Source of the DNA: Ostreococcus lucimarinus | Taxonomy: Eukaryota | DNA: 64,000 nucleotides | Strand: one strand, 5' to 3' | NCBI GenBank assembly: GCA_000092065.1 | Contig: CP000597.1 | In this document: positions 36,951 through 52,740 of the stretch, one piece after another | Numbering within the stretch: the first letter of the stretch is position 1 | Layout of the letters: the number at the start of each line of letters is the position of its first letter | Notes under the pieces: generated by a model | What the model saw: only the letters and a program-made list of their open reading frames with translations | Told to the model about the DNA's origin: nothing | The model's database searches: none | Program-made: the position numbers and the translations under genes

Positions 36951-39900
36951 ATGCGGCTCGACGACGGCGACGACGCGCGACGAAGGGACGCGCGCGCGGT
37001 TCGAGCGCGCGCGACGCGGACGCCGACGCGCGCGGCGACCACGCGCGGCGATGTCGTCGACGCCGCTGCCGCCGATGATGACATCGACGACGACGCCGTC
37101 GCGCGACCGGACGCGACGCGACGACGACGACGCGACGACGACGCGACGACGACGACGCGCGATGATGAGACGACGCGCGCGCGAGAGGGCGCGAGCGGAC
37201 GCCGGCGAGCGCGGGAACGAGGGAGAGCGACGAGGCGTCGTCGACGGCTCGGGACGGCGGCGGCGGCGGCGGCGACGGCGGCGTTGGCGGCGACGGTCGA
37301 GCGCGTCGGCGTGGACGCGTCGACGGCGCTCACGAAGGGGGTGGCGAGGAATGGTTTCGTGTCGTCGAGCGGGTATAAGTACTATAAGGTGAATGTGGCG
37401 TGCGTGGAGGCGGCGCAGCCGCTGACGTTGGAGCTGACGACGAGCAACGGGGACGCGAACTTGTACGTGTCTCGATCGGCGCAGCCGACGACTTCGTCGT
37501 ACGAACAGCGGAGCGTGAACGTTGGAAATGCGTTGGATTCGGTGACGATCACGAGTCCGGTGAATGGGTACTATTACGTGAGCGTGTACGGCGCGCTGTC
37601 CAGCACGTACAAGCTTCGAGCGCTCACGACGATGTTTACCGGGAAACATCCGTGCACGGGATTTCGAATCACCGATAGCGACGTCTCGAGCGTTGGCTCG
37701 GGATCTGGAAATCAGTTCATACTGCAAGAAGCGCTCACCGCGAGCGCGGCGGCGGGATTCACCGCGGATGTGTCCGTCGACGGCGACGTCATCCTCGGCG
37801 ACGCGTACACCGATTCGGTGACGGCGAAAGGAGAGCTCAAGCTCGGCGTGACGGACAGTACGTACTACGCCATCACGCGACAATCGCCGAGCGCACCGAG
37901 CAGCAACCCGGGCGGCGCTTTGTCGATCGTCGGCGCGAACGCGACCTATCAGGGGGGATCGGTAAAGATTCTCGGCGGAACGGGCGGTTCGGGGGCGGGC
38001 GGCGACGTCGTGATCGAGGCGGGGTCGGCGTCTGGCGGCAACGGTGGCGATTTGAAGTTACGTGGCGGCACGTCGAACTCAGGAACGGGCGGCGACGTCG
38101 TCATAGATGCCGGAGATAGCACGACACAAGCATCTTCGTACGAGGGCATCATTCACATAGGTCCAACTTCTGCGTCGTTTGTGCGCGTCGGCGAGAGTTC
38201 AAATAAGCAAGTTCAAACCGATATTTTCGGCGACTTGACGGTGCACGGAAATCTCTTGACAACGAATGATGTGGTGTACGCGAACAGCTACACGAGTTAC
38301 GTGCAGGTTTCAACCTCTCAAGACGGCATGTTTCATCAAGAAGTGCGCGCGCCAAAGATTACAGGTCTGGACGCGGAGGACATCACGGGCACTCCAACGA
38401 GCACGTTGACTTTAGACGCTGGCATGCGAGGGAGTCAGCAACACGTCGTGATCGCTCCGAGCGAGGCAACGGCGGTTTACATAGGTAGCAGCACATCCAC
38501 GATTCCGGTCTCGATAAGGCAAGGCGCGAACGCAGGAGACGTGCGAGTGCACGCTGATGGCAGCGGCGCGCTGTCCGTGACTTCGGCCGCAGGGCAGGAC
38601 CTGACGCTCGCGTCCGGCGACGACGTGGTGGTGACCACCGCGGCGAGTAAGACGCTCGCGCTGAAGCAGGACTCGACGAGCATTTTGAGCTGGGACGCGG
38701 CCGGCGCTGTGACTGTGAACTCCGTGAGCGGGCAGGACCTGACGCTGAGCACGGGCGGTAGCGCGGCCGTGACTGTGGACTCGACCGGGCAGGTGGGCAT
38801 CGGGACGACGACGCCGGGGAAGACGCTGGACGTCACCGGGACGGCGCGCGTGAGTGGCGCGACGACGCTGAGTAGCACGCTTGACGTGACTGGCGCTACG
38901 ACGCTCGCATCCGTGGGCGTGACCGGTGCGGCCACCGTCGGCGGGACTTTAGGTGTGACTGGCGCTACGACGCTCGCATCCGTGGGCGTGACCGGCGCGG
39001 CCACCGTCGGCGGGACTTTAGGTGTGACTGGCGCTACGACGCTCGCATCCGTGGGCGTGACCGGCGCGGCCACCGTCGGCACGACGCTCGGCGTGACTGG
39101 CGCTACGACGCTCACCGGCGACGTGACGATGAGCAACGACTTGACCGTGAGCGGTGCGCTTACTGTGACATCTGATGCCGCTGTGAGTTTGACCTCTGCA
39201 AGTGGTTCGGACGTGAGCTTGACGAGCGCCGGTACGGGTGGCATCGTGTTGACGTCGACGGACGACATCACGCTCGATGCTGCCGATGATGTGACGATCG
39301 ATGCCGCCGGTGCTTTGTCTTTGGAGCAGGGCGGGACGAGTATTTTGAGCTGGACCGACACCGGCGCTGTGACTTTGAACTCCTTAGGCGGGCAGACCCT
39401 GAGCGTGTCGAGCCTCAGCTCGGCCGGGAACGCGGGCGCCGTGAGCGTGTCCGGCGGCACGACGACTGGGACGTCCTCGAACACCGGCGGCGACTTGACG
39501 CTGCAATCTGGCGGCGCGCCCGCTGGCAGCGTGAACGGTGACGTTCTGGTGGACTCGGCCACTGGTCTAGGCACCGCCGGCTCGATCACGCTTCGCCAGG
39601 GGGTGGGCGGTGAGCGTGTTTCTGTGGACGCGAACGGCGCCGTGAGTCTGGACACGCACTCCGGGCAGGACCTGACGCTGAGCACGGGCGGTAGCGCGGC
39701 CGTGACTGTGGACTCGACCGGGCAGGTGGGCATCGGGACGACGACGCCGGGGAAGACGCTGGACGTCACCGGGACGGCGCGCGTGAGTGGCGCGACGACG
39801 CTGAGTAGCACGCTTGGCGTGACTGGCGCTACGACGCTCGCATCCGTGGGCGTGACCGGTGCGGCCACCGTCGGCGGGACTTTAGGTGTGACTGGCGCTA

Positions 39901-42900
39901 CGACGCTCGCATCCGTGGGCGTGACCGGCGCGGCCACCGTCGGCACGACGCTCGGCGTGACTGGCGCTACGACGCTCACCGGCGACGTGACGATGAGCAA
40001 CGACTTGACCGTGAGCGGTGCGCTTACTGTGACATCTGATGCCGCTGTGAGTTTGACCTCTGCAAGTGGTTCGGACGTGAGCTTGACGAGCGCCGGTACG
40101 GGTGGCATCGTGTTGACGTCGACGGACGACATCACGCTCGATGCTGCCGATGATGTGACGATCGATGCCGCCGGTGCTTTGTCTTTGGAGCAGGGCGGGA
40201 CGAGTATTTTGAGCTGGACCGACACCGGCGCTGTGACTTTGAACTCCTTAGGCGGGCAGACCCTGAGCGTGTCGAGCCTCAGCTCGGCCGGGAACGCGGG
40301 CGCCGTGAGCGTGTCCGGCGGCACGACGACTGGGACGTCCTCGAACACCGGCGGCGACTTGACGCTGCAATCTGGCGGCGCGCCCGCTGGCAGCGTGAAC
40401 GGTGACGTTCTGGTGGACTCGGCCACTGGTCTAGGCACCGCCGGCTCGATCACGCTTCGCCAGGGGGTGGGCGGTGAGCGTGTTTCTGTGGACGCGAACG
40501 GCGCCGTGAGTCTGGACACGCACTCCGGGCAGGACCTGACGCTGAGCACGGGCGGTAGCGCGGCCGTGACTGTGGACTCGACCGGGCAGGTGGGCATCGG
40601 GACGACGACGCCGGGGAAGACGCTGGACGTCACCGGGACGGCGCGCGTGAGTGGCGCGACGACGCTGAGTAGCACGCTTGGCGTGACTGGCGCTACGACG
40701 CTCGCATCCGTGGGCGTGACCGGTGCGGCCACCGTCGGCGGGACTTTAGGTGTGACTGGCGCTACGACGCTCGGCGGGACTTTAGGTGTGACTGGCGCTA
40801 CGACGCTCGCATCCGTGGGCGTGACCGGCGCGGCCACCGTCGGCACGACGCTTGGCGTGACTGGCGCTACGACGCTCGGCGGGACTTTAGGTGTGACTGG
40901 CGCTACGACGCTCGCATCCGTGGGCGTGACCGGCGCGGCCACCGTCGGCACGACGCTCGGCGTGACTGGCGCTACGACGCTCGCATCTGTGGGCGTGACC
41001 GGTGCGGCCACCGTCGGCGGGACTTTAGGTGTGACTGGCGCTACGACGCTCACCGGCGACGTGACGATGAGCAACGACTTGACCGTGAGCGGTGCGCTTA
41101 CTGTGACATCTGATGCCGCTGTGAGTTTGACCTCTGCAAGTGGTTCGGACGTGAGCTTGACGAGCGCCGGTACGGGTGGCATCGTGTTGACGTCGACGGA
41201 CGACATCACGCTCGATGCTGCCGATGATGTGACGATCGATGCCGCCGGTGCTTTGTCTTTGGAGCAGGGCGGGACGAGTATTTTGAGCTGGACCGACACC
41301 GGCGCTGTGACTTTGAACTCCTTAGGCGGGCAGACCCTGAGCGTGTCGAGCCTCAGCTCGGCCGGGAACGCGGGCGCCGTGAGCGTGTCCGGCGGCACGA
41401 CGACTGGGACGTCCTCGAACACCGGCGGCGACTTGACGCTGCAATCTGGCGGCGCGCCCGCTGGCAGCGTGAACGGTGACGTTCTGGTGGACTCGGCCAC
41501 TGGTCTAGGCACCGCCGGCTCGATCACGCTTCGCCAGGGGGTGGGCGGTGAGCGTGTTTCTGTGGACGCGAACGGCGCCGTGAGTCTGGACACGCACTCC
41601 GGGCAGGACCTGACGCTGAGCACGGGCGGTAGCGCGGCCGTGACTGTGGACTCGACCGGGCAGGTGGGCATCGGGACGACGACGCCGGGGAAGACGCTGG
41701 ACGTCACCGGGACGGCGCGCGTGAGTGGCGCGACGACGCTGAGTAGCACGCTTGGCGTGACTGGCGCTACGACGCTCGCATCCGTGGGCGTGACCGGTGC
41801 GGCCACCGTCGGCGGGACTTTAGGTGTGACTGGCGCTACGACGCTCGGCGGGACTTTAGGTGTGACTGGCGCTACGACGCTCGCATCCGTGGGCGTGACC
41901 GGTGCGGCCACCGTCGGCGGGACTTTAGGTGTGACTGGCGCTACGACGCTCGGCACGACGCTCGGCGTGACTGGCGCTACGACGCTCGCATCCGTGGGCG
42001 TGACCGGCGCGGCCACCGTCGGCACGACGCTCGGCGTGACTGGCGCTACGACGCTCACCGGCGACGTGACGATGAGCAACGACTTGACCGTGAGCGGTGC
42101 GCTTACTGTGACATCTGATGCCGCTGTGAGTTTGACCTCTGCAAGTGGTTCGGACGTGAGCTTGACGAGCGCCGGTACGGGTGGCATCGTGTTGACGTCG
42201 ACGGACGACATCACGCTCGATGCTGCCGATGATGTGACGATCGATGCCGCCGGTGCTTTGTCTTTGGAGCAGGGCGGGACGAGTATTTTGAGCTGGACCG
42301 ACACCGGCGCTGTGACTTTGAACTCCTTAGGCGGGCAGACCCTGAGCGTGTCGAGCCTCAGCTCGGCCGGGAACGCGGGCGCCGTGAGCGTGTCCGGCGG
42401 CACGACGACTGGGACGTCCTCGAACACCGGCGGCGACTTGACGCTGCAATCTGGCGGCGCGCCCGCTGGCAGCGTGAACGGTGACGTTCTGGTGGACTCG
42501 GCCACTGGTCTAGGCACCGCCGGCTCGATCACGCTTCGCCAGGGGGTGGGCGGTGAGCGTGTTTCTGTGGACGCGAACGGCGCCGTGAGTCTGGACACGC
42601 ACTCCGGGCAGGACCTGACGCTGAGCACGGGCGGTAGCGCGGCCGTGACTGTGGACTCGACCGGGCAGGTGGGCATCGGGACGACGACGCCGGGGAAGAC
42701 GCTGGACGTCACCGGGACGGCGCGCGTGAGTGGCGCGACGACGCTGAGTAGCACGCTTGGCGTGACTGGCGCTACGACGCTCGGCGGGACTTTAGGTGTG
42801 ACTGGCGCTACGACGCTCGCATCCGTGGGCGTGACCGGCGCGGCCACCGTCGGCACGACGCTCGGCGTGACTGGCGCTACGACGCTCGCATCCGTGGGCG

Positions 42901-45900
42901 TGACCGGCGCGGCCACCGTCGGCACGACGCTCGGCGTGACTGGCGCTACGACGCTCACCGGCGACGTGACGATGAGCAACGACTTGACCGTGAGCGGTGC
43001 GCTTACTGTGACATCTGATGCCGCTGTGAGTTTGACCTCTGCAAGTGGTTCGGACGTGAGCTTGACGAGCGCCGGTACGGGTGGCATCGTGTTGACGTCG
43101 ACGGACGACATCACGCTCGATGCTGCCGATGATGTGACGATCGATGCCGCCGGTGCTTTGTCTTTGGAGCAGGGCGGGACGAGTATTTTGAGCTGGACCG
43201 ACACCGGCGCTGTGACTTTGAACTCCTTAGGCGGGCAGACCCTGAGCGTGTCGAGCCTCAGCTCGGCCGGGAACGCGGGCGCCGTGAGCGTGTCCGGCGG
43301 CACGACGACTGGGACGTCCTCGAACACCGGCGGCGACTTGACGCTGCAATCTGGCGGCGCGCCCGCTGGCAGCGTGAACGGTGACGTTCTGGTGGACTCG
43401 GCCACTGGTCTAGGCACCGCCGGCTCGATCACGCTTCGCCAGGGGGTGGGCGGTGAGCGTGTTTCTGTGGACGCGAACGGCGCCGTGAGTCTGGACACGC
43501 ACTCCGGGCAGGACCTGACGCTGAGCACGGGCGGTAGCGCGGCCGTGACTGTGGACTCGACCGGGCAGGTGGGCATCGGGACGACGACGCCGGGGAAGAC
43601 GCTGGACGTCACCGGGACGGCGCGCGTGAGTGGCGCGACGACGCTGAGTAGCACGCTTGGCGTGACTGGCGCTACGACGCTCGCATCCGTGGGCGTGACC
43701 GGTGCGGCCACCGTCGGCGGGACTTTAGGTGTGACTGGCGCTACGACGCTCGCATCCGTGGGCGTGACCGGCGCGGCCACCGTCGGCACGACGCTCGGCG
43801 TGACTGGCGCTACGACGCTCGCATCCGTGGGCGTGACCGGCGCGGCCACCGTCGGCACGACGCTTGGCGTGACTGGCGCTACGACGCTCGGCGGGACTTT
43901 AGGTGTGACTGGCGCTACGACGCTCGCATCCGTGGGCGTGACCGGCGCGGCCACCGTCGGCACGACGCTCGGCGTGACTGGCGCTACGACGCTCGCATCT
44001 GTGGGCGTGACCGGTGCGGCCACCGTCGGCGGGACTTTAGGTGTGACTGGCGCTACGACGCTCACCGGCGACGTGACGATGAGCAACGACTTGACCGTGA
44101 GCGGTGCGCTTACTGTGACATCTGATGCCGCTGTGAGTTTGACCTCTGCAAGTGGTTCGGACGTGAGCTTGACGAGCGCCGGTACGGGTGGCATCGTGTT
44201 GACGTCGACGGACGACATCACGCTCGATGCTGCCGATGATGTGACGATCGATGCCGCCGGTGCTTTGTCTTTGGAGCAGGGCGGGACGAGTATTTTGAGC
44301 TGGACCGACACCGGCGCTGTGACTTTGAACTCCTTAGGCGGGCAGACCCTGAGCGTGTCGAGCCTCAGCTCGGCCGGGAACGCGGGCGCCGTGAGCGTGT
44401 CCGGCGGCACGACGACTGGGACGTCCTCGAACACCGGCGGCGACTTGACGCTGCAATCTGGCGGCGCGCCCGCTGGCAGCGTGAACGGTGACGTTCTGGT
44501 GGACTCGGCCACTGGTCTAGGCACCGCCGGCTCGATCACGCTTCGCCAGGGGGTGGGCGGTGAGCGTGTTTCTGTGGACGCGAACGGCGCCGTGAGTCTG
44601 GACACGCACTCCGGGCAGGACCTGACGCTGAGCACGGGCGGTAGCGCGGCCGTGACTGTGGACTCGACCGGGCAGGTGGGCATCGGGACGACGACGCCGG
44701 GGAAGACGCTGGACGTCACCGGGACGGCGCGCGTGAGTGGCGCGACGACGCTGAGTAGCACGCTTGACGTGACTGGCGTTACGACGCTCGCATCCGTGGG
44801 CGTGACCGGTGCGGCCACCGTCGGCACGACGCTCGGCGTGACTGGCGCTACGACGCTCGCATCCGTGGGCGTGACCGGTGCGGCCACCGTCGGCGGGACT
44901 TTAGGTGTGACTGGCGCTACGACGCTCGGCACGACGCTCGGCGTGACTGGCGCTACGACGCTCGCATCCGTGGGCGTGACCGGCGCGGCCACCGTCGGCA
45001 CGACGCTCGGCGTGACTGGCGCTACGACGCTCACCGGCGACGTGAGCGTCGGGACTTCCTCGGCTTTGAGTTTTGGTTCTGCAACCCGGCAGATGATCAA
45101 CTTATATGGAACAAACAACGCCATCGGCGTGCAATCGTCCACGATGTATTTTCGTAGTGCTTATAACTTTGCCTTTTTTGAAGGCGGCGTGTACACCAAC
45201 ACAGAGCTCGATCCGGGTTCGGGTGGCACTTTGCGCATGATGATTCAGAAAACCACGGGCAACGTCGGTATCGGGACGGCGAGTCCAGATTATGAACTCG
45301 ACGTGGTAGGCGATATCAACTTTTCTGGGAATCTCTATCAGGGTGGTTCGCTGTTTGCCTCCCCCTGGACGGAGAGCAGCGGTAACGTGTATCGCAGTAG
45401 CGGTAACGTCGGCATCGGGCTGACGAATCCGACCTACAATCTGCACGTTGCTGGAACGGGGCGCGTTAGTACGACGCTATCGGTGGGTCAAGATTTAACC
45501 ATCGACACGGCTGGCGACTTGAACTTTGCGGCGACGCATCGTCAGATGATCAACCTCCGCGTCGGCGCCGAGGGTTTCGGGATCGGGACGCAGATGGACA
45601 CGACGTACTTTCGCTCTCCGGGCCACTTTGCGTTCTACGAAGACGGAACGCACAGCACCACTGACTTGGACGCGAACGGTGGCACCGCGCGTCTGGTGAT
45701 CAGGAGCGGCGGGAAGGTGGGCATCGGGCGGACGAATCCGAGCTATGATCTCGACGTGGTAGGCGATATCAACTTTTCTGGGAATCTCTATCAGGGCGGT
45801 TCTCTGTTCCCGTCCCCCTCCCCCTGGACGGAGAGCGGCAGTAACGTGTATCGTAGTAGCGGTAACGTCGGCATCGGGCTGACGAATCCGAGCTACAAAC

Positions 45901-47045
45901 TGGACGTCACTGGAACAGGACACTTCACGGGCGCGACGACGATCGATGACCAACTCACCGTTGGCGGTAACGTATTGATCCAAAGTACAACCAATAAGAT
46001 TTCGTTTGGCAGCACAGCGCGTCAGTTTATTGAAACGAATAACGGTGGAATCGGAACGCAGTCAAAGACGCTGTATTTTCGTTCACAGGATTTTTTCGGC
46101 TTTTACAAAAATGGCGGTCACAACAGCGCCGATCTGAACCCAGGCGGAAGCGGGACTCTCCTTGTCGCCATTCGCGGTGACATCTCTGGTGCTCGAATGG
46201 CGATTGGATCTTCAGACACAGATAGTGGCTACGCTTTTAAGGTCACCGGGTCGGCGCAAGCGACCGCTGCGCTCGACGTAGGCACGACGCTTAATGTGGC
46301 GTCGTACGCGACAATTCGCGGCGACTTGCGCCTCAATACCGGTACTCAGCAAATAAATTTTGGTACCCAGCACCGTCAGGTTGCTGCGCTCGCGACTGGC
46401 GGCATCGGAACGCAGTCGAACACTGTATACTTTCGTTCACAGGACTTGTTTGGCTTTTATAAAGGTGGCGGCCATAGCTCTACCGCTCTTGATCCAGGCG
46501 GAAGCGGGACTCTCCTTGTCACCATTCGCGGTGACGTCTCTGGTCCTCGATTAGGAGTCGGAGTCACGAATCCCTCCTACGCTCTCGAAGTCAATGGAGC
46601 GGCGCACGTGTCTGGCGCACTGAGCAAGGGAAGTGGCTCTTTCAAGATCGATCATCCACTTCCTGAAATGAAAGACACGCATAATTTGTATCACTCCTTC
46701 ATCGAGGGACCACGGGCGGATCTCATCTACAGAGGCAAGGTTCGTTTGCAGAACGGTAGGGCGATGATAGACATCGATGCCGCATCAAACATGACGACAG
46801 GGACATTTGAAGCACTCAATCGCGACGTGCAGTCGTTCACGTCAAATGAAAGCGACTGGGACCCCGTCCGAGGTTCTGTCGTGGGCAACGTCCTCACCAT
46901 TGAGTGTCAAAACCCCACTTCGACGGCACTCATCAGCTGGCTTGTCATCGGTGAGCGTCACGATCAGCACATGTACGACACAGATTGGACCGATGAAAAC
47001 GGTCGTGTCGTTCCGGAACAATTGAAAAAGAGTGCGACGACGTGA
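36951..47045 (+). CDS. Giant (3,364 aa) repeat protein: PPC-like domain, nested tandem repeats, tail-fibre-like C-terminal region
   Basis: ATG at 36951. Arg/Asp leader followed by an Ala-rich hydrophobic anchor (about 37240-37300). PPC-like segment YKYYKVNV...LELTTSNGDANLYVSRS...GYYYVSVYG at about 37371-37630. Repeat array at 38730-45040. Four divergent repeats containing GNVGIG...P.Y.LDV.GDINFSGNLYQGG at 45040-46560. C-terminal FKIDHPLPEMKDTHNLYHSFIEGPRADLIYRGK. Confidence 0.85.
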   Translation: MRLDDGDDARRRDARAVRARATRTPTRAATTRGDVVDAAAADDDIDDDAVARPDATRRRRRDDDATTTTRDDETTRAREGASGRRRARERGRATRRRRRLGTAAAAAATAALAATVERVGVDASTALTKGVARNGFVSSSGYKYYKVNVACVEAAQPLTLELTTSNGDANLYVSRSAQPTTSSYEQRSVNVGNALDSVTITSPVNGYYYVSVYGALSSTYKLRALTTMFTGKHPCTGFRITDSDVSSVGSGSGNQFILQEALTASAAAGFTADVSVDGDVILGDAYTDSVTAKGELKLGVTDSTYYAITRQSPSAPSSNPGGALSIVGANATYQGGSVKILGGTGGSGAGGDVVIEAGSASGGNGGDLKLRGGTSNSGTGGDVVIDAGDSTTQASSYEGIIHIGPTSASFVRVGESSNKQVQTDIFGDLTVHGNLLTTNDVVYANSYTSYVQVSTSQDGMFHQEVRAPKITGLDAEDITGTPTSTLTLDAGMRGSQQHVVIAPSEATAVYIGSSTSTIPVSIRQGANAGDVRVHADGSGALSVTSAAGQDLTLASGDDVVVTTAASKTLALKQDSTSILSWDAAGAVTVNSVSGQDLTLSTGGSAAVTVDSTGQVGIGTTTPGKTLDVTGTARVSGATTLSSTLDVTGATTLASVGVTGAATVGGTLGVTGATTLASVGVTGAATVGGTLGVTGATTLASVGVTGAATVGTTLGVTGATTLTGDVTMSNDLTVSGALTVTSDAAVSLTSASGSDVSLTSAGTGGIVLTSTDDITLDAADDVTIDAAGALSLEQGGTSILSWTDTGAVTLNSLGGQTLSVSSLSSAGNAGAVSVSGGTTTGTSSNTGGDLTLQSGGAPAGSVNGDVLVDSATGLGTAGSITLRQGVGGERVSVDANGAVSLDTHSGQDLTLSTGGSAAVTVDSTGQVGIGTTTPGKTLDVTGTARVSGATTLSSTLGVTGATTLASVGVTGAATVGGTLGVTGATTLASVGVTGAATVGTTLGVTGATTLTGDVTMSNDLTVSGALTVTSDAAVSLTSASGSDVSLTSAGTGGIVLTSTDDITLDAADDVTIDAAGALSLEQGGTSILSWTDTGAVTLNSLGGQTLSVSSLSSAGNAGAVSVSGGTTTGTSSNTGGDLTLQSGGAPAGSVNGDVLVDSATGLGTAGSITLRQGVGGERVSVDANGAVSLDTHSGQDLTLSTGGSAAVTVDSTGQVGIGTTTPGKTLDVTGTARVSGATTLSSTLGVTGATTLASVGVTGAATVGGTLGVTGATTLGGTLGVTGATTLASVGVTGAATVGTTLGVTGATTLGGTLGVTGATTLASVGVTGAATVGTTLGVTGATTLASVGVTGAATVGGTLGVTGATTLTGDVTMSNDLTVSGALTVTSDAAVSLTSASGSDVSLTSAGTGGIVLTSTDDITLDAADDVTIDAAGALSLEQGGTSILSWTDTGAVTLNSLGGQTLSVSSLSSAGNAGAVSVSGGTTTGTSSNTGGDLTLQSGGAPAGSVNGDVLVDSATGLGTAGSITLRQGVGGERVSVDANGAVSLDTHSGQDLTLSTGGSAAVTVDSTGQVGIGTTTPGKTLDVTGTARVSGATTLSSTLGVTGATTLASVGVTGAATVGGTLGVTGATTLGGTLGVTGATTLASVGVTGAATVGGTLGVTGATTLGTTLGVTGATTLASVGVTGAATVGTTLGVTGATTLTGDVTMSNDLTVSGALTVTSDAAVSLTSASGSDVSLTSAGTGGIVLTSTDDITLDAADDVTIDAAGALSLEQGGTSILSWTDTGAVTLNSLGGQTLSVSSLSSAGNAGAVSVSGGTTTGTSSNTGGDLTLQSGGAPAGSVNGDVLVDSATGLGTAGSITLRQGVGGERVSVDANGAVSLDTHSGQDLTLSTGGSAAVTVDSTGQVGIGTTTPGKTLDVTGTARVSGATTLSSTLGVTGATTLGGTLGVTGATTLASVGVTGAATVGTTLGVTGATTLASVGVTGAATVGTTLGVTGATTLTGDVTMSNDLTVSGALTVTSDAAVSLTSASGSDVSLTSAGTGGIVLTSTDDITLDAADDVTIDAAGALSLEQGGTSILSWTDTGAVTLNSLGGQTLSVSSLSSAGNAGAVSVSGGTTTGTSSNTGGDLTLQSGGAPAGSVNGDVLVDSATGLGTAGSITLRQGVGGERVSVDANGAVSLDTHSGQDLTLSTGGSAAVTVDSTGQVGIGTTTPGKTLDVTGTARVSGATTLSSTLGVTGATTLASVGVTGAATVGGTLGVTGATTLASVGVTGAATVGTTLGVTGATTLASVGVTGAATVGTTLGVTGATTLGGTLGVTGATTLASVGVTGAATVGTTLGVTGATTLASVGVTGAATVGGTLGVTGATTLTGDVTMSNDLTVSGALTVTSDAAVSLTSASGSDVSLTSAGTGGIVLTSTDDITLDAADDVTIDAAGALSLEQGGTSILSWTDTGAVTLNSLGGQTLSVSSLSSAGNAGAVSVSGGTTTGTSSNTGGDLTLQSGGAPAGSVNGDVLVDSATGLGTAGSITLRQGVGGERVSVDANGAVSLDTHSGQDLTLSTGGSAAVTVDSTGQVGIGTTTPGKTLDVTGTARVSGATTLSSTLDVTGVTTLASVGVTGAATVGTTLGVTGATTLASVGVTGAATVGGTLGVTGATTLGTTLGVTGATTLASVGVTGAATVGTTLGVTGATTLTGDVSVGTSSALSFGSATRQMINLYGTNNAIGVQSSTMYFRSAYNFAFFEGGVYTNTELDPGSGGTLRMMIQKTTGNVGIGTASPDYELDVVGDINFSGNLYQGGSLFASPWTESSGNVYRSSGNVGIGLTNPTYNLHVAGTGRVSTTLSVGQDLTIDTAGDLNFAATHRQMINLRVGAEGFGIGTQMDTTYFRSPGHFAFYEDGTHSTTDLDANGGTARLVIRSGGKVGIGRTNPSYDLDVVGDINFSGNLYQGGSLFPSPSPWTESGSNVYRSSGNVGIGLTNPSYKLDVTGTGHFTGATTIDDQLTVGGNVLIQSTTNKISFGSTARQFIETNNGGIGTQSKTLYFRSQDFFGFYKNGGHNSADLNPGGSGTLLVAIRGDISGARMAIGSSDTDSGYAFKVTGSAQATAALDVGTTLNVASYATIRGDLRLNTGTQQINFGTQHRQVAALATGGIGTQSNTVYFRSQDLFGFYKGGGHSSTALDPGGSGTLLVTIRGDVSGPRLGVGVTNPSYALEVNGAAHVSGALSKGSGSFKIDHPLPEMKDTHNLYHSFIEGPRADLIYRGKVRLQNGRAMIDIDAASNMTTGTFEALNRDVQSFTSNESDWDPVRGSVVGNVLTIECQNPTSTALISWLVIGERHDQHMYDTDWTDENGRVVPEQLKKSATT
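38730..45040 (+). repeat. Near-identical nested tandem array inside the giant CDS (6 full units plus 1 partial)
   Basis: The QDLTLSTGGSAAVTVDSTGQVGIGTTTPGKTLDVTG landmark recurs at 38730, 39663, 40527, 41601, 42606, 43506 and 44613. Unit lengths are 933, 864, 1074, 1005, 900 and 1107 bp. All length differences are sums of 69-bp (ASVGVTGAATVGGTLGVTGATTL) and 36-bp (GGTLGVTGATTL) sub-repeats. Units are almost identical at nucleotide level by eye. Confidence 0.9.
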
Positions 47046-47163: not shown

Positions 47164-50100
47164 CTATAGTCTAAAAGATAGCTTTGCGAACTCTCCGTCG
47201 GACACCGCGTCGCTCGTCTGCCCCCCCGTCGCGCCGTCATCGCTCGTTTCGCTTCCGAGCAACGAAGACGCCTTTCGCCGGCGCTCAGGCGAATCGTCCG
47301 CGTCCCGAAAATCGTAGAGATAATCGCTATGCCTTGCATAATGCACCCGCGTCGCTTCTTCTCCTGAGGCATTAAATCTATACGACTCGGGAGAAAATGA
47401 TGACTGAGCGAATCTGTCCTCATCTGACGCGCTCTCTTCGGCGTCGTACGATTCACCCATGGAATACGCCAGTTCGCTCGGTTCACGTTCACTCAGTCCA
47501 TCATTCGGTGTATTCAGCCCTGGTTGGCGTCCACTAGATGGGTCTTTCATCTCAAACGCGTAATGATCGTCATCCGAGTCAGCATCCGTGGAAGATGCGT
47601 AAGCACGCCGCGACTCAAACCTGTTCTCACCAAAAAATGCGGCGCCGCGTAGAGGTTCCGGTGGTTCCAGTTCTAGTTCGGGTTCCGGTTCCGGTCGCAC
47701 TTCCCGTTCTGCTGTCACATCCGTCTCTGGTGCGAGATCTAAGATGGACTGGTTCCGTCCGGGCACGACGTTACCCTGCTCTCCATTCGTCTCGAATGCG
47801 GCGAGCGTCGCGACGTGATCGCGAGCGACACTCCCGCCTCGGTGACCCTTTACGACGGCACGTTCTTCCTGAGCGCTGTGGGTGAATCTCTCAATCACGC
47901 TACGCGCTTTGGTTGATGCGTCAAATAACGCGCCACCAGGTTCGCGCGACCGCACGACTTTCTTTTTAATTCTGATTGCGAGTCGTCGAAGCTGAATCGT
48001 GTGCTTGATAATTTCCACCACCTCCTCGGTGTCGTACAGTCCCTCGTCGTCCGCTGATACTGAGAATCTTTCGAGAATGATCGCCACAAATAAATTTCCG
48101 AGCAAAAATATAGAGATGATGACAAATGATATAAAGTATGGGACCGCAGCAGCGTTATACGAGCAGTCGATGCTGGATTCCAACATGAACGGTGCTTCTG
48201 TGCGTAAGCACGCCTCTGTTTGGTACACCTCGCCGAACGTGCCAACCCAGCCACCCGTGTACACCCCGATGAGAGATGAGCAAGCTGTGGTGAATCGTTG
48301 AAAGTTCGAGTACTTCGATAGCACGCCGCCTTCGAAAGGGCCGGTTTCATCGCCGAAAAGTGAAACACCCATGATGGCGTACGAAAAGATCGCGAGGGAC
48401 GATAGCGCGGCGACGTTTCCGACACCCGGAAGACTCATTATGAACGTGTTGAAGAGCGACCGCAGCCCAGAATGTGCCTTTACCAGTTTCAGTAATCTCA
48501 ACAATCTCACCAATTGTAGGTAATTCATGACACCGCCTGCGTTTAGACTTTGTCCGATCGCCTGTACGATGGAAACTACGACGACGAAGGCGTCCAGCCA
48601 ATTCCAATAATTCCTAAAGTAACGCGTCCGACCTTGCGCCATGAGCAAAAGCATCATTTCCAAAGAGTACACCGCAGTGAACGCGATAGACATGCAGAAG
48701 TGAGCATATTCTGCTGAACTGCTCATATTCGCCGTTTGTGTCAAGAGCTCGATTAAATTTGCGCACACTACCACGAGGATGAAGTACGCAAACTTTTTCG
48801 GCTTTGAGATATGATGCGCAAGTAGACGAGCTCGCGACCAAAGGCTTTTGCCTGGCGGCGGTACGATTCTGCGCCATGCCTCTGAATCTTGCGTGCTTGC
48901 ACGTAGTATAGCCTGCTGCCAGCGCCGCTGCGCTGGGGTGACAAACGTAAGCTTGTCTTGCGAAGCCATCTTGTTAAAGTTGTCCACGAGCGCCGTGACT
49001 AATAAATTCAACCAAAAGAAATTCCCGATGGCGACCGTCAATACAAAATAAAGAGCGGCGGCTTGGTTGTTATCTGTTTTCAAGCCGGTCCCGACGCCTG
49101 TGGTATCCATGGCGACCCACATGATTTCTTGCCAGTCATCGCCGGCGTGCAGTAGAAACGTCGATAAAAGTGCAGCGCCAAAGTTATCAAAGTTGAACTT
49201 TGCATTTCGCCACTTTCCTCCCGCTGCCTCGCACGTTGCTTGTGTAGTGTAGCTACTCGCATCATTCACCACTCGACACGACCAAAACTTACCCATAAAG
49301 AGCTCCATACCAAGAAGTGCGAAAATTGACATGGAAACTAAACCGATGAAGCACACGTAACTTACGGCTGGGATCGCGGAAAGTACAGTGTTAACGACAA
49401 GGCGGAGACCAGGGAAACGACGAATGGATCGAAGCGGGCGCATGATTCGCAAAAGTCGAAGTGCTCGCACGCTTCCGCTGCCATCGTCTGCCGCGGTGAG
49501 CGAAATGATTGATGTAAAGACGACGACGCCATCGAGAATGTTGAAGGAATTCTTCAGATACGCAGTCGGTCGCTCGTACAACCCGTAGGCGAATAACTTT
49601 AATACCATCTCTGCGCCAAATAAAGTCGTAAAAGTAATATCAACCGCGGTGTACACTTTTGCAGTATGAGATCCCGCCACTGGCCAAGTCTTTGTTTCTG
49701 TCGCGAGTAACACGCTACCAGCGATGATCATGCATAGAATGGCGTTCTCAAAGAGGTTGTGTGAAACAATTTTGTGCACCAAGTATTTGTATCTCTCGAC
49801 GGGAATCGTATCGTCGTACAGCGGTATAAAGTCGCCATCTTTTGTGACGATCACGCCCGGTATCTCTGACGACTGTTTCTTCACGCGTGAGGAGATGGAT
49901 CTCGTGATTGTCGCCGCCCAAGGACCGTGCGCGTCAAAGACGACATGCTCGTCTTCCTTACTCTTATCCTCGATGCTTAAACGATTGTTTTGCGCCGCAA
50001 ATCTTTTCGTCATACTGTGCCTAATAGAACTTTTGATAGAGCTAGTCACCCCGAACGCTTTGTCTTGATAGTCTTGATACTCCACAAACTTTGGCGTCAG

Positions 50101-52740
50101 GCGAAGTTGAGCCTCCTTAAGAGCGTGCTCGCTTATGGTCAGTACTTGCGCCGGTGTCTTCAACTTGAATCCGATCGAATCTAGAAATATCCTGCACGCA
50201 GCAACATCTTCGACTGTTTGCTTTCTCAAGCGGTCCTTCTTGACCTGCGCGAGCTTGCCACCGTGATCCGGAGGCTTTAATGCTGCGAGTACGGATGAAA
50301 TCGCCGTAGGCGTACTGCCATCGGCCGTCTTTAAACTCTTTTTCGCTTGCGATTGTATTGCTTGTTCGGCACATTCTTGTTTCCTGGCCGCATCCAAAAG
50401 ATTAAACTTGAAGCTCGTATCACCTCTGTCTTTTATCGAGTCGCCGCGCTTGCTGCGCGCATGTTTTCGCAACGTACTCCTGAATGCGTTCGCCGCGAAT
50501 GTCATGTTTTGCAGTACCCGTTTCGCTTTCCGATTCGGATCTAGCACGATATCACCCGCACGTTCGATGGCAGACCTCAGTCTGCCATCTTCAAGCTCGT
50601 CTTGCGCGCGTTGCTCTTCCTCGATGTCGACGAGCGAACACGAGTCGATTAAAATCCCGAGCACGAGCGACAAGATGACGGTGGATAAAAAAATCCACGC
50701 GATGGTGTACAGAACGACGACGTCGTTACCGGACGCTACCATAGTATTCCACGCGACAACAAACGAGTCCTCTCCCGTGGCGACAACAAACAGCGTCAAC
50801 GCGCTGCGCAAAAAGTTCCTAAACGTCAAGCGCTCGTCGTCGAGCGCTCCTAACCCGGTGAAGAGTTGAAATCCGTAAATGGCAAATATGACTTGAAATA
50901 ATAGCCAAACGATCAAAAACGGCCACATGTCTTGGAAACCGAGATACGCGCTTGAAATGATCTTCCTAAATTCTCTGTTGTTTCTGATGACGCGAAACGT
51001 TCGCAGCGCCCTTCCTATTCGCAAGAGACGAATGAATGACGCGCTCACGCCTTGACTCGTCACCGCCGTACTGATGACACCGGTAAACACGATCAACCCA
51101 TCGACAACGTTTTGCTTTGAGCTCCAGTATCCTCTAAAGCCGTATCCGATGTGTTTAATCGCCATTTCTACAGCAAAACATCCGAGGAAAACATATTCTA
51201 AAATTTCAGAAGCCTTGACGAATCCCGACGACGCCGCGTGATGCTGCGACATCATCAAAATTGTATTAAATATAATAACCACCGTGATGCTGGCATCAAA
51301 ACGTCGGTCTTCAGCGATTTTCCAGCACATTTGACGCGTTGCATCAGACACAAAGAGACGAAAAAAACGCTCACCATTCTTGTGAAAGTTGTTTCCGCGT
51401 CCATCGCTTTCGCCGCGACTGAGCGCCGTCTCGTCGTCCAAGCTTTCTAGTACTTTCTCTGTCTTCGCCTGGCTCGAGTCTTCGGGCGCTTCGTCTTCGT
51501 CGCGAATACCCATTTGCGTCAACGTCGCGCAAATGACGGATGTAAAGAGTTCCATCATAAAAAACCCACCCATCAGAACGACGACGATGAACCAAAGAAA
51601 CGCCGCGGGATAGCCAACCGCGTACGCCGTGGGATTGAGCAACTCATTCCAACCGTCGATGGTCATTCCATTTAACGCGACAATTGAACTTCTCCCAGCG
51701 TTCGCAAAGCTCAGAAATCCGTCATACGGCTCGATGCCCGAATCACAGCACCACTCCGTCGCGCTTCTGTTTGTGTTCCATTCCTTGTAGTTGCACGTGC
51801 TGTCGTACTCATTTGGGTACGTTCCTTCGGCGCCCAACGCGAGAGCGCCCATCCACGCGCCGACCAAGTTCGCACACGTCTCACTCCCCGTCCCCACGGG
51901 AAACACGTAGCTCGCGTTCGTCGCTTGATCCGGCGGCGTCCCGTACCACCGTCCCGTCATCCGACCGCCGAACATCGTCACGCCGCTCACCGCGAAGAAT
52001 ATTAAAAACCACAGCAAAAACAACAGCACGTCCCCCAACAACGGCAGCGCTCGAGCGATCGTTTTCATCGCCAACCTCGCGCTGCGGTACTTCGCGAACA
52101 ACTTGAACGCGTACAACGACCGCAACAGTCGCACCGTCACCACCTGCGAGCCTCCGATCGGCATCAACATCAACGACAGCACGACGAGCGTGAAATCGAA
52201 CCGATGCCAATTCGTCGTCAAGTACGCCCCCTCGCCCAGCGCGAATCCCAGCGCCACGCTCTTCACCAGCGCCTCCGCCGCGAACACCCCCGCGACGACG
52301 TAATTCGCCGCCGTCGCCGCCGTCGCCTCCGCCGCGCCATCCCTCGCCGGTTTCACCACCGCGACGATCGCGCTCGAGCCCACGACGCACATCGCGACGA
52401 CGGCGTGAAACGCGCGCGCCTCGATCGCGCGCGCGCAGAACCGTCGCGTCGCGCCGTCGCGCCGGAACATCAACAGCGACGCGTCGTTCGCGCGCCATCG
52501 CTCGAGCGTCCTCGCGACGCGTCGCGTCACCGCGCCTCCCGCGTCGTCGTCGCCGTCGCGCGCGTCGTCGTCGTCGTCGTCGCGCGCGCGCGCGCCGTCG
52601 CGCGCGTCGCGCGCGTCGCCGTCGTCGTCGTCGTCGTCGCTCGTCGAGCTCGCGCGCGCGCTGTCGTCCACCTTCCGCGCGCGCGCCTCGCGCGCGTCGC
52701 GCGCGCGCGACACGAACGCGTCCGTGAACTGAAAGTTCAT
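47164..52740 (-). CDS. Four-domain voltage-gated cation channel (Cav/Nav superfamily)
   Basis: ATG at 52740. Four 6-TM repeats with Arg/Lys-every-third S4 helices: VRLLRSLYAFKLFAKYR, IRLLRIGRALRTFRVIR, VRALRLLRIMRPLRSIRR, LQLVRLLRLLKLVKAHSGLR. Pore loops: MTIDGWNEL, ATGEDSF, HAGDDWQEI, YTGGWVG. Confidence 0.9.
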   Translation of the reverse strand: MNFQFTDAFVSRARDAREARARKVDDSARASSTSDDDDDDGDARDARDGARARDDDDDDARDGDDDAGGAVTRRVARTLERWRANDASLLMFRRDGATRRFCARAIEARAFHAVVAMCVVGSSAIVAVVKPARDGAAEATAATAANYVVAGVFAAEALVKSVALGFALGEGAYLTTNWHRFDFTLVVLSLMLMPIGGSQVVTVRLLRSLYAFKLFAKYRSARLAMKTIARALPLLGDVLLFLLWFLIFFAVSGVTMFGGRMTGRWYGTPPDQATNASYVFPVGTGSETCANLVGAWMGALALGAEGTYPNEYDSTCNYKEWNTNRSATEWCCDSGIEPYDGFLSFANAGRSSIVALNGMTIDGWNELLNPTAYAVGYPAAFLWFIVVVLMGGFFMMELFTSVICATLTQMGIRDEDEAPEDSSQAKTEKVLESLDDETALSRGESDGRGNNFHKNGERFFRLFVSDATRQMCWKIAEDRRFDASITVVIIFNTILMMSQHHAASSGFVKASEILEYVFLGCFAVEMAIKHIGYGFRGYWSSKQNVVDGLIVFTGVISTAVTSQGVSASFIRLLRIGRALRTFRVIRNNREFRKIISSAYLGFQDMWPFLIVWLLFQVIFAIYGFQLFTGLGALDDERLTFRNFLRSALTLFVVATGEDSFVVAWNTMVASGNDVVVLYTIAWIFLSTVILSLVLGILIDSCSLVDIEEEQRAQDELEDGRLRSAIERAGDIVLDPNRKAKRVLQNMTFAANAFRSTLRKHARSKRGDSIKDRGDTSFKFNLLDAARKQECAEQAIQSQAKKSLKTADGSTPTAISSVLAALKPPDHGGKLAQVKKDRLRKQTVEDVAACRIFLDSIGFKLKTPAQVLTISEHALKEAQLRLTPKFVEYQDYQDKAFGVTSSIKSSIRHSMTKRFAAQNNRLSIEDKSKEDEHVVFDAHGPWAATITRSISSRVKKQSSEIPGVIVTKDGDFIPLYDDTIPVERYKYLVHKIVSHNLFENAILCMIIAGSVLLATETKTWPVAGSHTAKVYTAVDITFTTLFGAEMVLKLFAYGLYERPTAYLKNSFNILDGVVVFTSIISLTAADDGSGSVRALRLLRIMRPLRSIRRFPGLRLVVNTVLSAIPAVSYVCFIGLVSMSIFALLGMELFMGKFWSCRVVNDASSYTTQATCEAAGGKWRNAKFNFDNFGAALLSTFLLHAGDDWQEIMWVAMDTTGVGTGLKTDNNQAAALYFVLTVAIGNFFWLNLLVTALVDNFNKMASQDKLTFVTPAQRRWQQAILRASTQDSEAWRRIVPPPGKSLWSRARLLAHHISKPKKFAYFILVVVCANLIELLTQTANMSSSAEYAHFCMSIAFTAVYSLEMMLLLMAQGRTRYFRNYWNWLDAFVVVVSIVQAIGQSLNAGGVMNYLQLVRLLRLLKLVKAHSGLRSLFNTFIMSLPGVGNVAALSSLAIFSYAIMGVSLFGDETGPFEGGVLSKYSNFQRFTTACSSLIGVYTGGWVGTFGEVYQTEACLRTEAPFMLESSIDCSYNAAAVPYFISFVIISIFLLGNLFVAIILERFSVSADDEGLYDTEEVVEIIKHTIQLRRLAIRIKKKVVRSREPGGALFDASTKARSVIERFTHSAQEERAVVKGHRGGSVARDHVATLAAFETNGEQGNVVPGRNQSILDLAPETDVTAEREVRPEPEPELELEPPEPLRGAAFFGENRFESRRAYASSTDADSDDDHYAFEMKDPSSGRQPGLNTPNDGLSEREPSELAYSMGESYDAEESASDEDRFAQSSFSPESYRFNASGEEATRVHYARHSDYLYDFRDADDSPERRRKASSLLGSETSDDGATGGQTSDAVSDGEFAKLSFRL

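Follow-up and report, generated by a model that had tools for sequence, protein, structure and literature searches.

The window analyzed here, 64,000 nt of Ostreococcus lucimarinus DNA from contig CP000597.1, contains an ORF of 3,364 codons that is probably a genuine nuclear gene of the alga, vertically inherited and chimeric, encoding a very long fibre-adhesin of the phage tail-fibre/MAT type. The best reading of the sequence is that the product would be a trimeric adhesin fibre, either secreted or anchored in the membrane, with a distal part that would stem from the marine virus fibre pool. Trimeric adhesins of the tail-fibre/MAT type are known from phages, tailocins, and predatory bacteria and, as predictions, from genomic islands of giant viruses; our literature search found no description of one conserved in a eukaryotic nuclear genome. 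The gene would clearly illustrate how a cell puts a module of the virus fibre pool to new use. Little is known of the surface molecules through which Ostreococcus adsorbs viruses, contacts bacteria, and mates, and the giant-fibre gene provides a specific, clonable candidate for contacts of this alga with viruses, bacteria, or other Ostreococcus cells. The features of the locus, all on the plus strand, are as follows:

36951..47045 (+), complete ORF of 3,364 aa plus stop codon, starting with ATG, uninterrupted, and containing no Ns
36951..37247 (+), low-complexity leader rich in Arg, Asp, Ala, and Thr (aa 1-99), encoded by CGA-type DNA repeats
37248..37298 (+), hydrophobic segment LGTAAAAAATAALAATV (aa 100-116) that follows RRRRR, a candidate signal anchor or signal-peptide core
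37374..37592 (+), beta-sandwich domain of the PPC (pre-peptidase C-terminal) type (aa 142-214), Pfam PF04151
37638..38786 (+), 'unique' rod region rich in Gly, Ser, and Thr (aa 230-612), restricted to Ostreococcus-like proteins
38787..45110 (+), repeat block of seven tandem units (aa 613-2720), matching phage proteins of PHROG, tail fibre 9942 among them
45111..46622 (+), four fibre modules that differ from one another (aa 2721-3224), all having a '..YFRS..' segment and GNVGIG..P.Y.L.V.G capping loops
46623..47042 (+), C-terminal tip of 140 aa (aa 3225-3364), with a beta-sandwich fold of the kind typical of distal domains in phage fibres

The probability that such a stop-free run arose by chance is ~1e-37 across the whole ORF, or ~5e-20 if only distinct sequence is counted. 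An antisense ORF (38477..45142) was dismissed as a shadow ORF. Upstream, the gene is separated by 183 nt from a pseudouridine synthase gene and, downstream, by 118 nt from the gene of a four-repeat cation channel (Ion_trans). A further ORF in the flanks (11703..13058) matches XP_001422204.1 of O. lucimarinus CCE9901 exactly, and the junctions of the locus recur in independent metagenome contigs. The intact frame, the eukaryotic flanks, and this identity bear out the original observation of a single giant ORF in an alga, and the close neighbours and repeated junctions likewise uphold its view that contamination is unlikely. An exact look-up in a collection of 15 billion proteins did not retrieve the 3,364-aa protein, so that the gene is probably absent from the reference annotation or wrongly modelled there; it becomes broken or collapsed in short-read assemblies. 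A look-up of the partial O. tauri product was likewise negative, and the NCBIfam library gave no matches.

The N-terminal part begins with the leader, which was correctly recognized at the outset as an Arg/Asp stretch. It carries the sole in-frame ATG ahead of aa 228, and it is found in three same-species metagenome proteins (P0167, P0172, and P0174), identical save one residue. We propose that the leader forms a cytosolic tail or a long n-region of a signal sequence. The Ala-rich anchor postulated behind it was confirmed as to the presence of a hydrophobic segment, less so as to its strength: LGTAAAAAATAALAATV is the most hydrophobic 19-residue window of the protein, yet weakly so (Kyte-Doolittle 1.29), and lies 100 residues from the sole start codon. 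Paralogues have signal-peptide-like segments at the matching position, directly ahead of a conserved DGST.L.KGVARNGFVS motif. Judging from its position after the Arg-rich leader and from these paralogues, the segment would bring about entry into the secretory pathway, serving as a type-II anchor or being cleaved off as a signal.

The predicted PPC domain was recovered by PF04151 with an E-value of 1.5e-9 and 39.1 bits (profile positions 2-70 of 70), above the curated gathering threshold of 25.9 bits. The accompanying notion that this domain is a bacterial hallmark did not hold, as PPC is not diagnostic of bacteria: the same region also matches the eukaryote-type UPF0669/C6orf120 model PF17065, more weakly and below the threshold of that model, and the same PPC domain is present in 10-18 copies in very long proteins whose origin is unknown. 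In bacterial proteases PPC is C-terminal, whereas in the algal protein it is N-terminal, within a fibre, and accompanied by no protease domain. We propose that it constitutes the base of the fibre.

The unique region that follows PPC shows a weak relation to the constant repeat block described below, and an exhaustive HMMER search found matches to it in Ostreococcus-like proteins only. Twelve indexed relatives, nearly all of them Ostreococcus-like, were found for the part ahead of the repeat block, made up of PPC and the unique region. The N-terminal part is present at at least three loci in Ostreococcus-like algae; paralogues of the N-terminal half reside at other host loci and form a small family. 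The AF2 model of aa 116-612 has a pLDDT of 40 and is unusable apart from the PPC core (pLDDT 50-71).

The repeat block is rich in T (17%), G (17%), S (11%), A (11%), and V (10%), in agreement with the kilobases of Gly/Thr/Val-rich repeats initially described. Its seven large units begin at aa 613, 924, 1212, 1570, 1905, 2205, and 2574, the period varying from 864 to 1107 nt. All units are built according to the same plan, namely GQVGIGTTTPGKTLDVTG, then a variable run of 23/35-aa sub-repeats (69/105 nt), and then a constant block of 202 aa. The six copies of the constant block (606 nt each) are 100% identical, with no DNA differences, whereas the variable blocks range from 86 to 167 aa; the unequal length of the blocks lying between identical segments favors distinct, real copies. 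The repeat number is known from a single assembly, and the short-read metagenome proteins P0172 and P0174 (1,329 aa) contain approximately one unit. Paralogues have tandem amplifications of their own. Identical repeats and differing amplifications in paralogues together suggest that rod length would be set by tandem modules expanding, contracting, and being homogenized via unequal recombination. Such perfectly homogenized repeats make the gene a candidate contingency locus for surface variation.

Modules with a GNVGIGT..P.Y.LDV.G motif of the tail-fibre-like kind had been noted at the outset, and they were confirmed. The motif [VL]G[IV]G..P...L occurs in 12 copies, compared with 0.004 expected from shuffles. 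The C-terminal 664 aa match PHROG 9942 ('tail fiber protein') with an E-value of 4e-14, and the loop-bearing modules, without coverage of the tip, match the sequences of PDB entries 8OND (Bd2133) and 8OJN (Bd3182) with E-values of 1e-4 to 5e-4. The capping-loop consensus of MAT fibres is V-G-G/N-pi-x-x-P-x-x-x-L (Caulton et al., 2024, PMC10769870). Some uncultured phage proteins (P0032, P0021, and P0028) share, besides the tip, the modules that precede it. Relatives bear either the S74 chaperone-protease (Peptidase_S74, PF13884), as many of them do, or the same tip as the giant fibre; in the C-terminal 664 aa of the algal protein, PF13884 has no match even at E ≤ 1.

The tip is predicted to fold independently as a beta-sandwich cap (pLDDT 89). 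It was found in at least 530 viral contigs, with phage structural-gene contexts. In tblastn comparisons with cyanophages, the terminal ~145 aa show 50-56% identity (E 1e-41 to 1e-44), and the tip-bearing cyanophage proteins are annotated as 'tail fiber' or 'virion structural protein'. Structure comparison against BFVD gave a TM-score of 0.85 with the cyanophage protein Q58M60, the best matches being E5ES67 and A0A6G6XMY7; accessions beginning with E5E presumably belong to the prasinovirus genomes of 2010, and a literature search on E5ES67 returned nothing. Among the fold neighbours of the tip are C-terminal domains of tailspikes and depolymerases as well as domains that bind receptors, namely the R2 pyocin foot, the Pam1 RBD, and the Oekolampad RBP in complex with LptDE. 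The R-type pyocin foot and the phage tailspike or depolymerase C-terminal domains (PDB 6CL6, 7EEA, 9K4A, and 7W1C) share 11-16% identity with the tip, which is a resemblance in fold and not family membership. A search of the tip profile against PDB sequences produced weak or spurious matches, e.g., to CD276 Ig domains. The scan of GTDB genomes yielded six loci, all on short MAG contigs, and therefore says little about bacterial carriers. Overall, the homology of modules and tip to phage tail fibres, Bdellovibrio MAT, and giant-virus adhesin-like proteins substantiates the phage/bacterial fibre-adhesin architecture that had been inferred for the gene.

The giant-virus carriers are uncultured contigs of prasinovirus-like NCLDV, in which a 1,254-aa adhesin-like protein ends in one capping-loop module and the tip. 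The host tips are 71-76% identical to the NCLDV tips; the last ~180 aa of the algal and viral proteins align, and the viral body is unrelated. Next to the viral gene lie an NCLDV capsid gene, DUF5767, and genes for F5/8C and FG-GAP proteins, and among members of the viral family lectin-type F5/8C domains and the tip replace one another. A link between the FG-GAP gene neighbouring the algal locus and the viral FG-GAP adhesin was rejected (E 0.13). The hypervariable region, or genomic island, of prasinoviruses has been described as containing adhesin-like proteins typed as 'cell wall surface anchor family/FhaB', tail-fibre, F5/8C, and FG-GAP (Thomy et al., 2026, PMC12906663; PMC13620141), and genes for host recognition that evolve under diversifying selection are proposed to reside in such islands. 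The GC content of the tip-bearing NCLDV loci is 0.36-0.40, versus 0.52-0.68 in the host gene. The algal locus is a single gene with host-like GC3, where an endogenous giant-virus element would comprise contiguous viral genes of viral composition.

A syntenic orthologue of the algal gene (L004) shares the ion channel, EF-hand, and FG-GAP neighbours; its flanking genes are 67-69% identical and its tip 81% identical to those of O. lucimarinus. The tip of the O. tauri homologue is 93% identical. Another candidate 81% orthologue (L003) was rejected because it represents a nearly identical lineage whose tip contains frameshift errors. The GC3 of the gene (0.60-0.79) is host-like (host range 0.63-0.83). 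Estimated dN/dS is ~0.05-0.08 for the tip and ~0.27 for the module, and the tip is under purifying selection. In a tip tree built by neighbor joining on 135 columns, not by maximum likelihood, the host tips group together in a single clade (97% bootstrap) that lies among the viral ones. The phylogenetic check suggested earlier therefore places them inside viral diversity, whereas their sister grouping with NCLDV has 48% bootstrap, other viral tips being equally close (74%). The idea of horizontal transfer survives in part: the distal modules and tip are of viral type, but the gene as a whole is inherited vertically within Ostreococcus-like algae, as indicated by synteny, GC3, and dN/dS. Since the gene is vertical, syntenic, ameliorated, and a member of a paralogous family, with a tip under purifying selection, any foreign origin would be old and limited to the distal part.

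These data can be assembled into a tentative scheme of the fibre. By analogy with the N-terminal domain of MAT, which sits at the cell surface, PPC would be the cell-proximal base. Three chains may intertwine into a beta-helical rod, as suggested by the homology to trimeric fibres, the trimer itself being putative. Published MAT dimensions, at ~0.4-0.6 Angstrom per residue, would give a fibre of ~125-185 nm. The distal beta-sandwich tip would touch another surface by way of a ligand, most probably a glycan, in view of its fold class and of the MAT and pyocin precedents. The C-terminal ~600 aa (modules and tip) would have come from the marine virus fibre pool and been joined to the alga-specific N-terminal part before the split of the lineages whose flanking genes are now 67-69% identical. 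A role as a scale component, also considered in the original prediction, is unlikely, since Ostreococcus is a naked, wall-less picoalga of ~1 micrometre without scales.

Other readings of the gene differ mainly in what they assign to the tip. It is conceivable, if rather unlikely, that the terminal domain acts mainly as a folding or trimerization cap and that any binding specificity lies along the rod or in PPC. Such a role would be analogous to that of tailspike C-terminal domains and non-S74 MAT caps, and it agrees with the position of the tip, which sits where relatives have PF13884, as well as with its structural neighbours among tailspike and depolymerase C-terminal domains. Its high conservation across very different carriers points the same way: an identity of 50-76% across cyanophages, giant viruses, and algae is unusual for a specificity determinant, so that a folding or trimerization cap, or a very common ligand, fits at least as well as a specific receptor. 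However, genuine receptor-binding domains are also among the top fold matches (R2 pyocin foot, Oekolampad RBP-LptDE, Pam1 RBD), and the swapping of the tip with lectin-type F5/8C domains in the viral family is expected of a binding module. We give still less weight to antiviral interference, in which the virus-derived tip on the cell surface would occupy or mimic the ligand of the giant-virus adhesin, or bind virions, and lower prasinovirus adsorption, much as endogenous retroviral env genes block receptors in vertebrates. The 71-76% identity to adhesin-like tips from capsid-flanked islands, the host-recognition role and diversifying selection proposed for such islands, the discussion of adsorption-step resistance of Ostreococcus in the literature, and the conservation of the gene with a tip under purifying selection all speak for a decoy. 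On the other hand, strong purifying selection is not the signature expected of an arms race, the 48% sister relation to NCLDV tips is weak, and the GC of the NCLDV loci is closer to that of viruses of the Bathycoccus or Micromonas type (37-39%) than to that of Ostreococcus viruses (41-45%). Moreover, the presence of the same tip in cyanophages implies that recognition of an algal ligand is not required, and a 3,364-aa rod is needless for receptor masking.

In its fuller form, equally doubtful, the antiviral reading states that a virus fibre's receptor-binding end has been domesticated by Ostreococcus and is displayed on a ~0.15 micrometre fibre that masks or mimics the ligand of the prasinovirus adhesin or captures virions, with recombination-driven changes in rod length providing rapid surface variation. 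If true, this would be the first description of a virus-derived system that interferes with adsorption in a eukaryotic alga, and it would provide a handle on the still unknown prasinovirus receptor. By far the least probable is an inert endogenous viral fragment, a contaminant, or an assembly artefact devoid of host function, a reading that is largely refuted. The viral and bacterial homology of the distal part, the identical repeats, which could reflect an assembly problem, and the missing database entry can be cited in its favor. Against it stand the eukaryotic neighbours 183 and 118 nt away, the same junctions in independent metagenome contigs, the intact 10-kb ORF with dN/dS far below 1 and host-like GC3, the alga-specific N-terminal half with paralogues at other host loci, and the differing lengths of the variable blocks between identical segments.

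Among known systems, the proposed fibre-adhesin can be compared with the MAT fibres of Bdellovibrio bacteriovorus, which are cell-encoded and proposed to reach outward from the cell surface (PMC10769870). Both share a layout of secretion signal, N-terminal base, long rod, and exchangeable C-terminal beta-sandwich tip without S74, and the non-S74 MAT subgroup (Bd2133, 8OND; Bd3182, 8OJN) has the same repeated beta-helix modules with a capping loop. With a MAT C-terminus being either S74 or an independent adhesive cap, the algal protein corresponds to the non-S74 type. It differs in its eukaryotic carrier, in being ~3.3 times longer with an internally amplified rod, and in its tip domain, which is unlike the solved MAT tips; the trimeric state of the algal fibre is predicted from homology. 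The MAT base is a ~130-aa beta-rich domain after the signal peptide, and as PPC takes this position in the alga, that MAT feature is probably lacking. The same terminal domain as in the alga occurs in cyanophages P-SSM2 (PSSM2_295 'tail fiber protein', Q58M60), S-TIM5/54/61/66, and P-SSM5, whose proteins are virion components encoded among tail genes, whereas the algal gene lies among housekeeping genes. The algal protein further departs from cyanophage fibres in its alga-specific N-terminus with PPC and its far longer rod, and its locus, outside any viral genome or tail-gene context, is syntenic in other algal contigs. Like the algal protein, the adhesin-like proteins of prasinovirus islands combine modular tip swapping with variation in rod length.

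The fibre gene (36951..47045, + strand) is a single, N-free open reading frame spanning 3,364 codons. Given a stop-codon frequency of ~0.025 per codon at the local GC content, the chance of such a frame staying open is ~1e-37, and it is still ~5e-20 when restricted to the 1,758 distinct 30-mers. The domain layout of the original prediction was recovered in this single frame, including the PPC domain, the repeats, and the modules:

Layout of the fibre protein (positions in aa, all on the + strand)
1-99: leader, Arg/Asp/Ala/Thr low complexity, on CGA-type DNA repeats
100-116: hydrophobic stretch, RRRRR-LGTAAAAAATAALAATV
142-214: PPC domain (Pfam, 39.1 bits, above the curated threshold of 25.9)
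up to 612: Gly/Ser/Thr-rich region
613 to ~2720: repeat block, seven large tandem units
2721-3224: four non-identical fibre modules
last 140 aa: terminal domain (tip)

In each large repeat unit, the motif GQVGIGTTTPGKTLDVTG is followed by a variable stretch (86-167 aa) built from 23/35-aa sub-repeats and then by a constant 202-aa block; the six 606-nt copies of this block have zero nucleotide differences. Tandem amplification in the fibre family is recurrent, with complete homogenisation. The pattern [VL]G[IV]G..P...L occurs in 12 copies in the protein (0.004 expected from shuffles). A 2,221-aa antisense ORF (38477..45142, - strand), located wholly within the repeat block, was rejected as a shadow ORF: it is Val/Pro-rich, holds only 625 distinct 30-mers, and has its third codon position in common with the sense frame.

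An exact match to XP_001422204.1 of O. lucimarinus CCE9901 is encoded at 11703..13058, and the neighbourhood of the fibre gene is eukaryotic: 183 nt upstream lies a pseudouridine synthase, 118 nt downstream a four-repeat Ion_trans cation channel, and PIP5K and protein kinase genes are further away. Because of this exact match and these neighbours, contaminant DNA is excluded as the source of the locus, as had been anticipated in the original prediction. The exact 3,364-aa product had no match in a collection of 15 billion proteins, in which the flanking O. lucimarinus proteins were found; therefore, the gene model is probably missing from the reference annotation, or is different or wrong there. 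Short-read metagenome assemblies contain gene fragments or ~1,329-aa versions with a single repeat unit (P0172, P0174). The voltage-gated-type channel gene (47164..52740, - strand, 1,858 aa) has a GC content of 0.50-0.54, clearly below its surroundings.

The fibre gene is an intact, conserved, and compositionally native algal gene. Together with the channel it is syntenic in two metagenome contigs, L003 (a near-identical lineage) and L004. The latter carries a true divergent orthologue, with flanking kinase, channel, and FG-GAP genes 67-69% identical to those of the window and a tip 81% identical, and a partial product from O. tauri has a tip 93% identical to that of the window. GC3 values of the tip (0.60) and the modules (0.62) are level with that of the neighbouring channel gene (0.63) and within the host range. 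Nei-Gojobori comparisons, in which dS is saturated and the dN/dS ratios are rough, gave dN 0.126 and dS 1.66 for the tip against L004, dN 0.099 and dS 2.1 for the tip against locus L001, and dN 0.31 and dS 1.14 for the modules against L004; the tip is clearly under constraint. In L003:344-2440 (long-read), a compensated frameshift garbles ~40 residues of the tip-coding region, which follows modules that share ~99% identity with the window; the probable cause is an assembly error rather than pseudogene formation.

The two ends of the protein, whose search had been suggested with the original prediction, gave different pictures: the C-terminal part matches phage, MAT (mosaic adhesive trimer), and giant-virus proteins; for the N-terminal part (PPC plus unique region), the indexed search yielded just 12 relatives, of which all but one are Ostreococcus-like. 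This exception is weak (E 7.6e-4) and limited to the PPC domain of a protein with subtilase and PA domains. In exhaustive HMMER searches, the unique region matched Ostreococcus-like proteins only, and the PPC-like domain alone matched hundreds of proteins, including P0342, P0344, P0351, and others (2,400-2,600 aa) with 10-18 tandem PPC/UPF0669-like domains ~30% identical to that of the fibre. The PPC domain, originally read as a bacterial signature, is thus no evidence for bacterial origin.

Homologues of the N-terminal part occupy at least three distinct algal loci, adjoining the ion channel (L003, L004, as in the window), the BRR2 helicase (L010, L011), or isoamylase (L002). Family members range from short proteins of 778 aa (P0009: PPC, unique region, one module, and tip) and 723 aa (P0178, without the tip) to L002, a giant by its own amplification (8.3-kb homologous span). 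At L010:9600-21854 (527-kb long-read contig, GC 0.64), next to BRR2, a segment matching window aa ~335-555, which differs from the window's repeat, is amplified in at least six tandem copies with a ~1.65-kb period; the reading frame shifts between copies, perhaps through sequencing errors or decay. Directly before the conserved DGST.L.KGVARNGFVS, paralogues have a signal-peptide-like segment (MGRAMAAACAACAALGGA in P0178, LALTLCVARA in P0009), which supports putative secretory targeting of the family.

The C-terminal 664 aa match PHROG 9942 "tail fiber protein" (E 4e-14), and their GNVGIG..P...L.V.G segments match the solved Bdellovibrio fibres Bd2133 (8OND) and Bd3182 (8OJN). The paper on these structures defines the MAT superfamily by its intertwined trimeric beta-helical rods, the capping-loop consensus V-G-G/N-pi-x-x-P-x-x-x-L, a conserved base domain at the N-terminus, close to the cell, and C-terminal tips that can be exchanged and are either S74 chaperone-proteases or independent beta-sandwiches (PMC10769870). 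Capping loops are present in the algal protein, but its cap is of a non-S74 type (no PF13884 match in the Pfam search). By these sequence matches the distal ~600 aa are homologous to trimeric phage and MAT fibres. The phage, bacterial, and giant-virus architecture originally proposed therefore holds for this part and the tip; the gene itself is native and conserved in Ostreococcus-like algae, and its proximal part is alga-specific.

The last ~145 aa form a separate, widespread domain that ends many otherwise unlike proteins at 50-70% identity. Its carriers include uncultured phages, in structural-gene blocks with S74 and C1q fibre proteins (L005/L006) or with capsid and adaptor genes (L007), one bacterial genome (6 Mb), and the cultured cyanophages P-SSM2 (PSSM2_295, "tail fiber protein"), S-TIM5 group ("virion structural protein"), and P-SSM5 (50-56% identity to the algal tip, E 1e-41 to 1e-44). 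At least 530 tip loci were confirmed in the IMG/VR scan and only six in the GTDB genome scan, every one on a short MAG contig. The tip gave a high-confidence AlphaFold2 model (38 homologues; pLDDT 89, pTM 0.78), whose nearest folds are distal domains of phage fibres and spikes: the cyanophage Pam1 tailspike RBD (7EEA, score 9.9), the R2 pyocin fibre (6CL6, 7.6), Klebsiella phage depolymerase C-termini (6.9-7.2), Oekolampad RBP (6.7), and AP22 gp53 (6.3). Foldseek agrees, and matches to the model in BFVD include the P-SSM2 fibre (TM 0.85) and two further viral entries (73 and 67% identity). The tip is common to cyanophage and giant-virus proteins, with a predicted fold of the fibre distal domain type.

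The best IMG/VR tip matches are giant-virus loci, not phages. In L025, from a 100.5-kb contig with a GC content of 0.38, the tip lies at the end of a 1,254-aa ORF (L025:4707-8471). Its neighbours are an NCLDV major-capsid-type gene (PF04451 + PF16903), a DUF5767 gene, and genes for an F5/8-type-C protein of 1,367 aa and an FG-GAP protein of 1,065 aa, a context common to ~24 of the top loci. In layout this matches the capsid-bounded hypervariable region of prasinoviruses, which encodes "cell wall surface anchor/FhaB", tail-fibre, S74, and lectin proteins with a proposed host-recognition role (PMC12906663); F5/8 and FG-GAP adhesins are typical of islands in Ostreococcus viruses (PMC13620141). 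The NCLDV adhesin-like family (contigs up to 168-240 kb) has a conserved body of ~800-1,100 aa and a C-terminus swapped among the tip, F5/8 type C, Peptidase_S74, and FG-GAP_2, a modular tip swapping similar to that of MAT fibres. Only the last ~180 aa of the viral and algal proteins align (one loop module plus tip; 65% identity, E 7e-74).

The suggested phylogeny, a neighbour-joining tree of 83 tips, separated a host clade and an NCLDV clade (97% bootstrap each) and gave no firm donor, since their sister grouping has just 48% and other viral tips (L037, L048) are as close to the host tip, at 74%. The GC content of tip-bearing giant-virus loci (0.36-0.40) fits Bathycoccus/Micromonas viruses (37-39%) better than Ostreococcus viruses (41-45%). 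On these grounds the donor cannot be named more closely than the marine virus fibre pool, and either direction of exchange between alga and NCLDV would be possible. In L037 (IMGVR_UViG_3300020178_001354, GC 0.49), a 699-aa ORF carrying the tip adjoins genes for a 2,000-aa Laminin_G_3+C1q protein, an S74 protein, an RCC1-repeat protein of 1,432 aa, and a Phage_tail_APC chaperone; its gene content is similar to that of the reported expanded hypervariable region of OtV type 2b, but the contig could equally be a phage.

The hydrophobic segment would direct the protein into the secretory pathway, and its chains may form a homotrimer. By analogy with MAT fibres (PMC10769870), PPC would be the base and the tip distal, and scaling from their dimensions (370 aa for 150 Angstrom; about 920 aa for 550 Angstrom) suggests a fibre of ~125-185 nm. 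The tip would bind a ligand; its unusual conservation across very different carriers leaves open a role mainly as a trimerisation cap, or as a binder of a very common ligand. Interference with virus adsorption, the most interesting reading of the gene, is improbable because selection is purifying and Ostreococcus is not a demonstrated host of the tip-bearing giant viruses.

Prasinovirus adhesin-type proteins (PMC12906663) and Bdellovibrio MAT fibres (PMC10769870) are already known; the literature search found these papers, and none that describes a homologue encoded by Ostreococcus itself or by another member of the Mamiellophyceae. What appears to be new is that a eukaryotic nuclear genome encodes and conserves an adhesin of the tail-fibre/MAT type, here with a PPC base fused to it and a length expanded to 3,364 aa.

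Elsewhere in the window, a 2,032-aa ORF (13276..19374, + strand) contains rhodanese, sulfotransferase, AMP-binding, PP-binding, NAD_binding_4 reductase, and ADH_N/ADH_zinc_N domains, an unusual combination in which a carboxylate-reductase-like enzyme is fused to sulfur-transfer domains.
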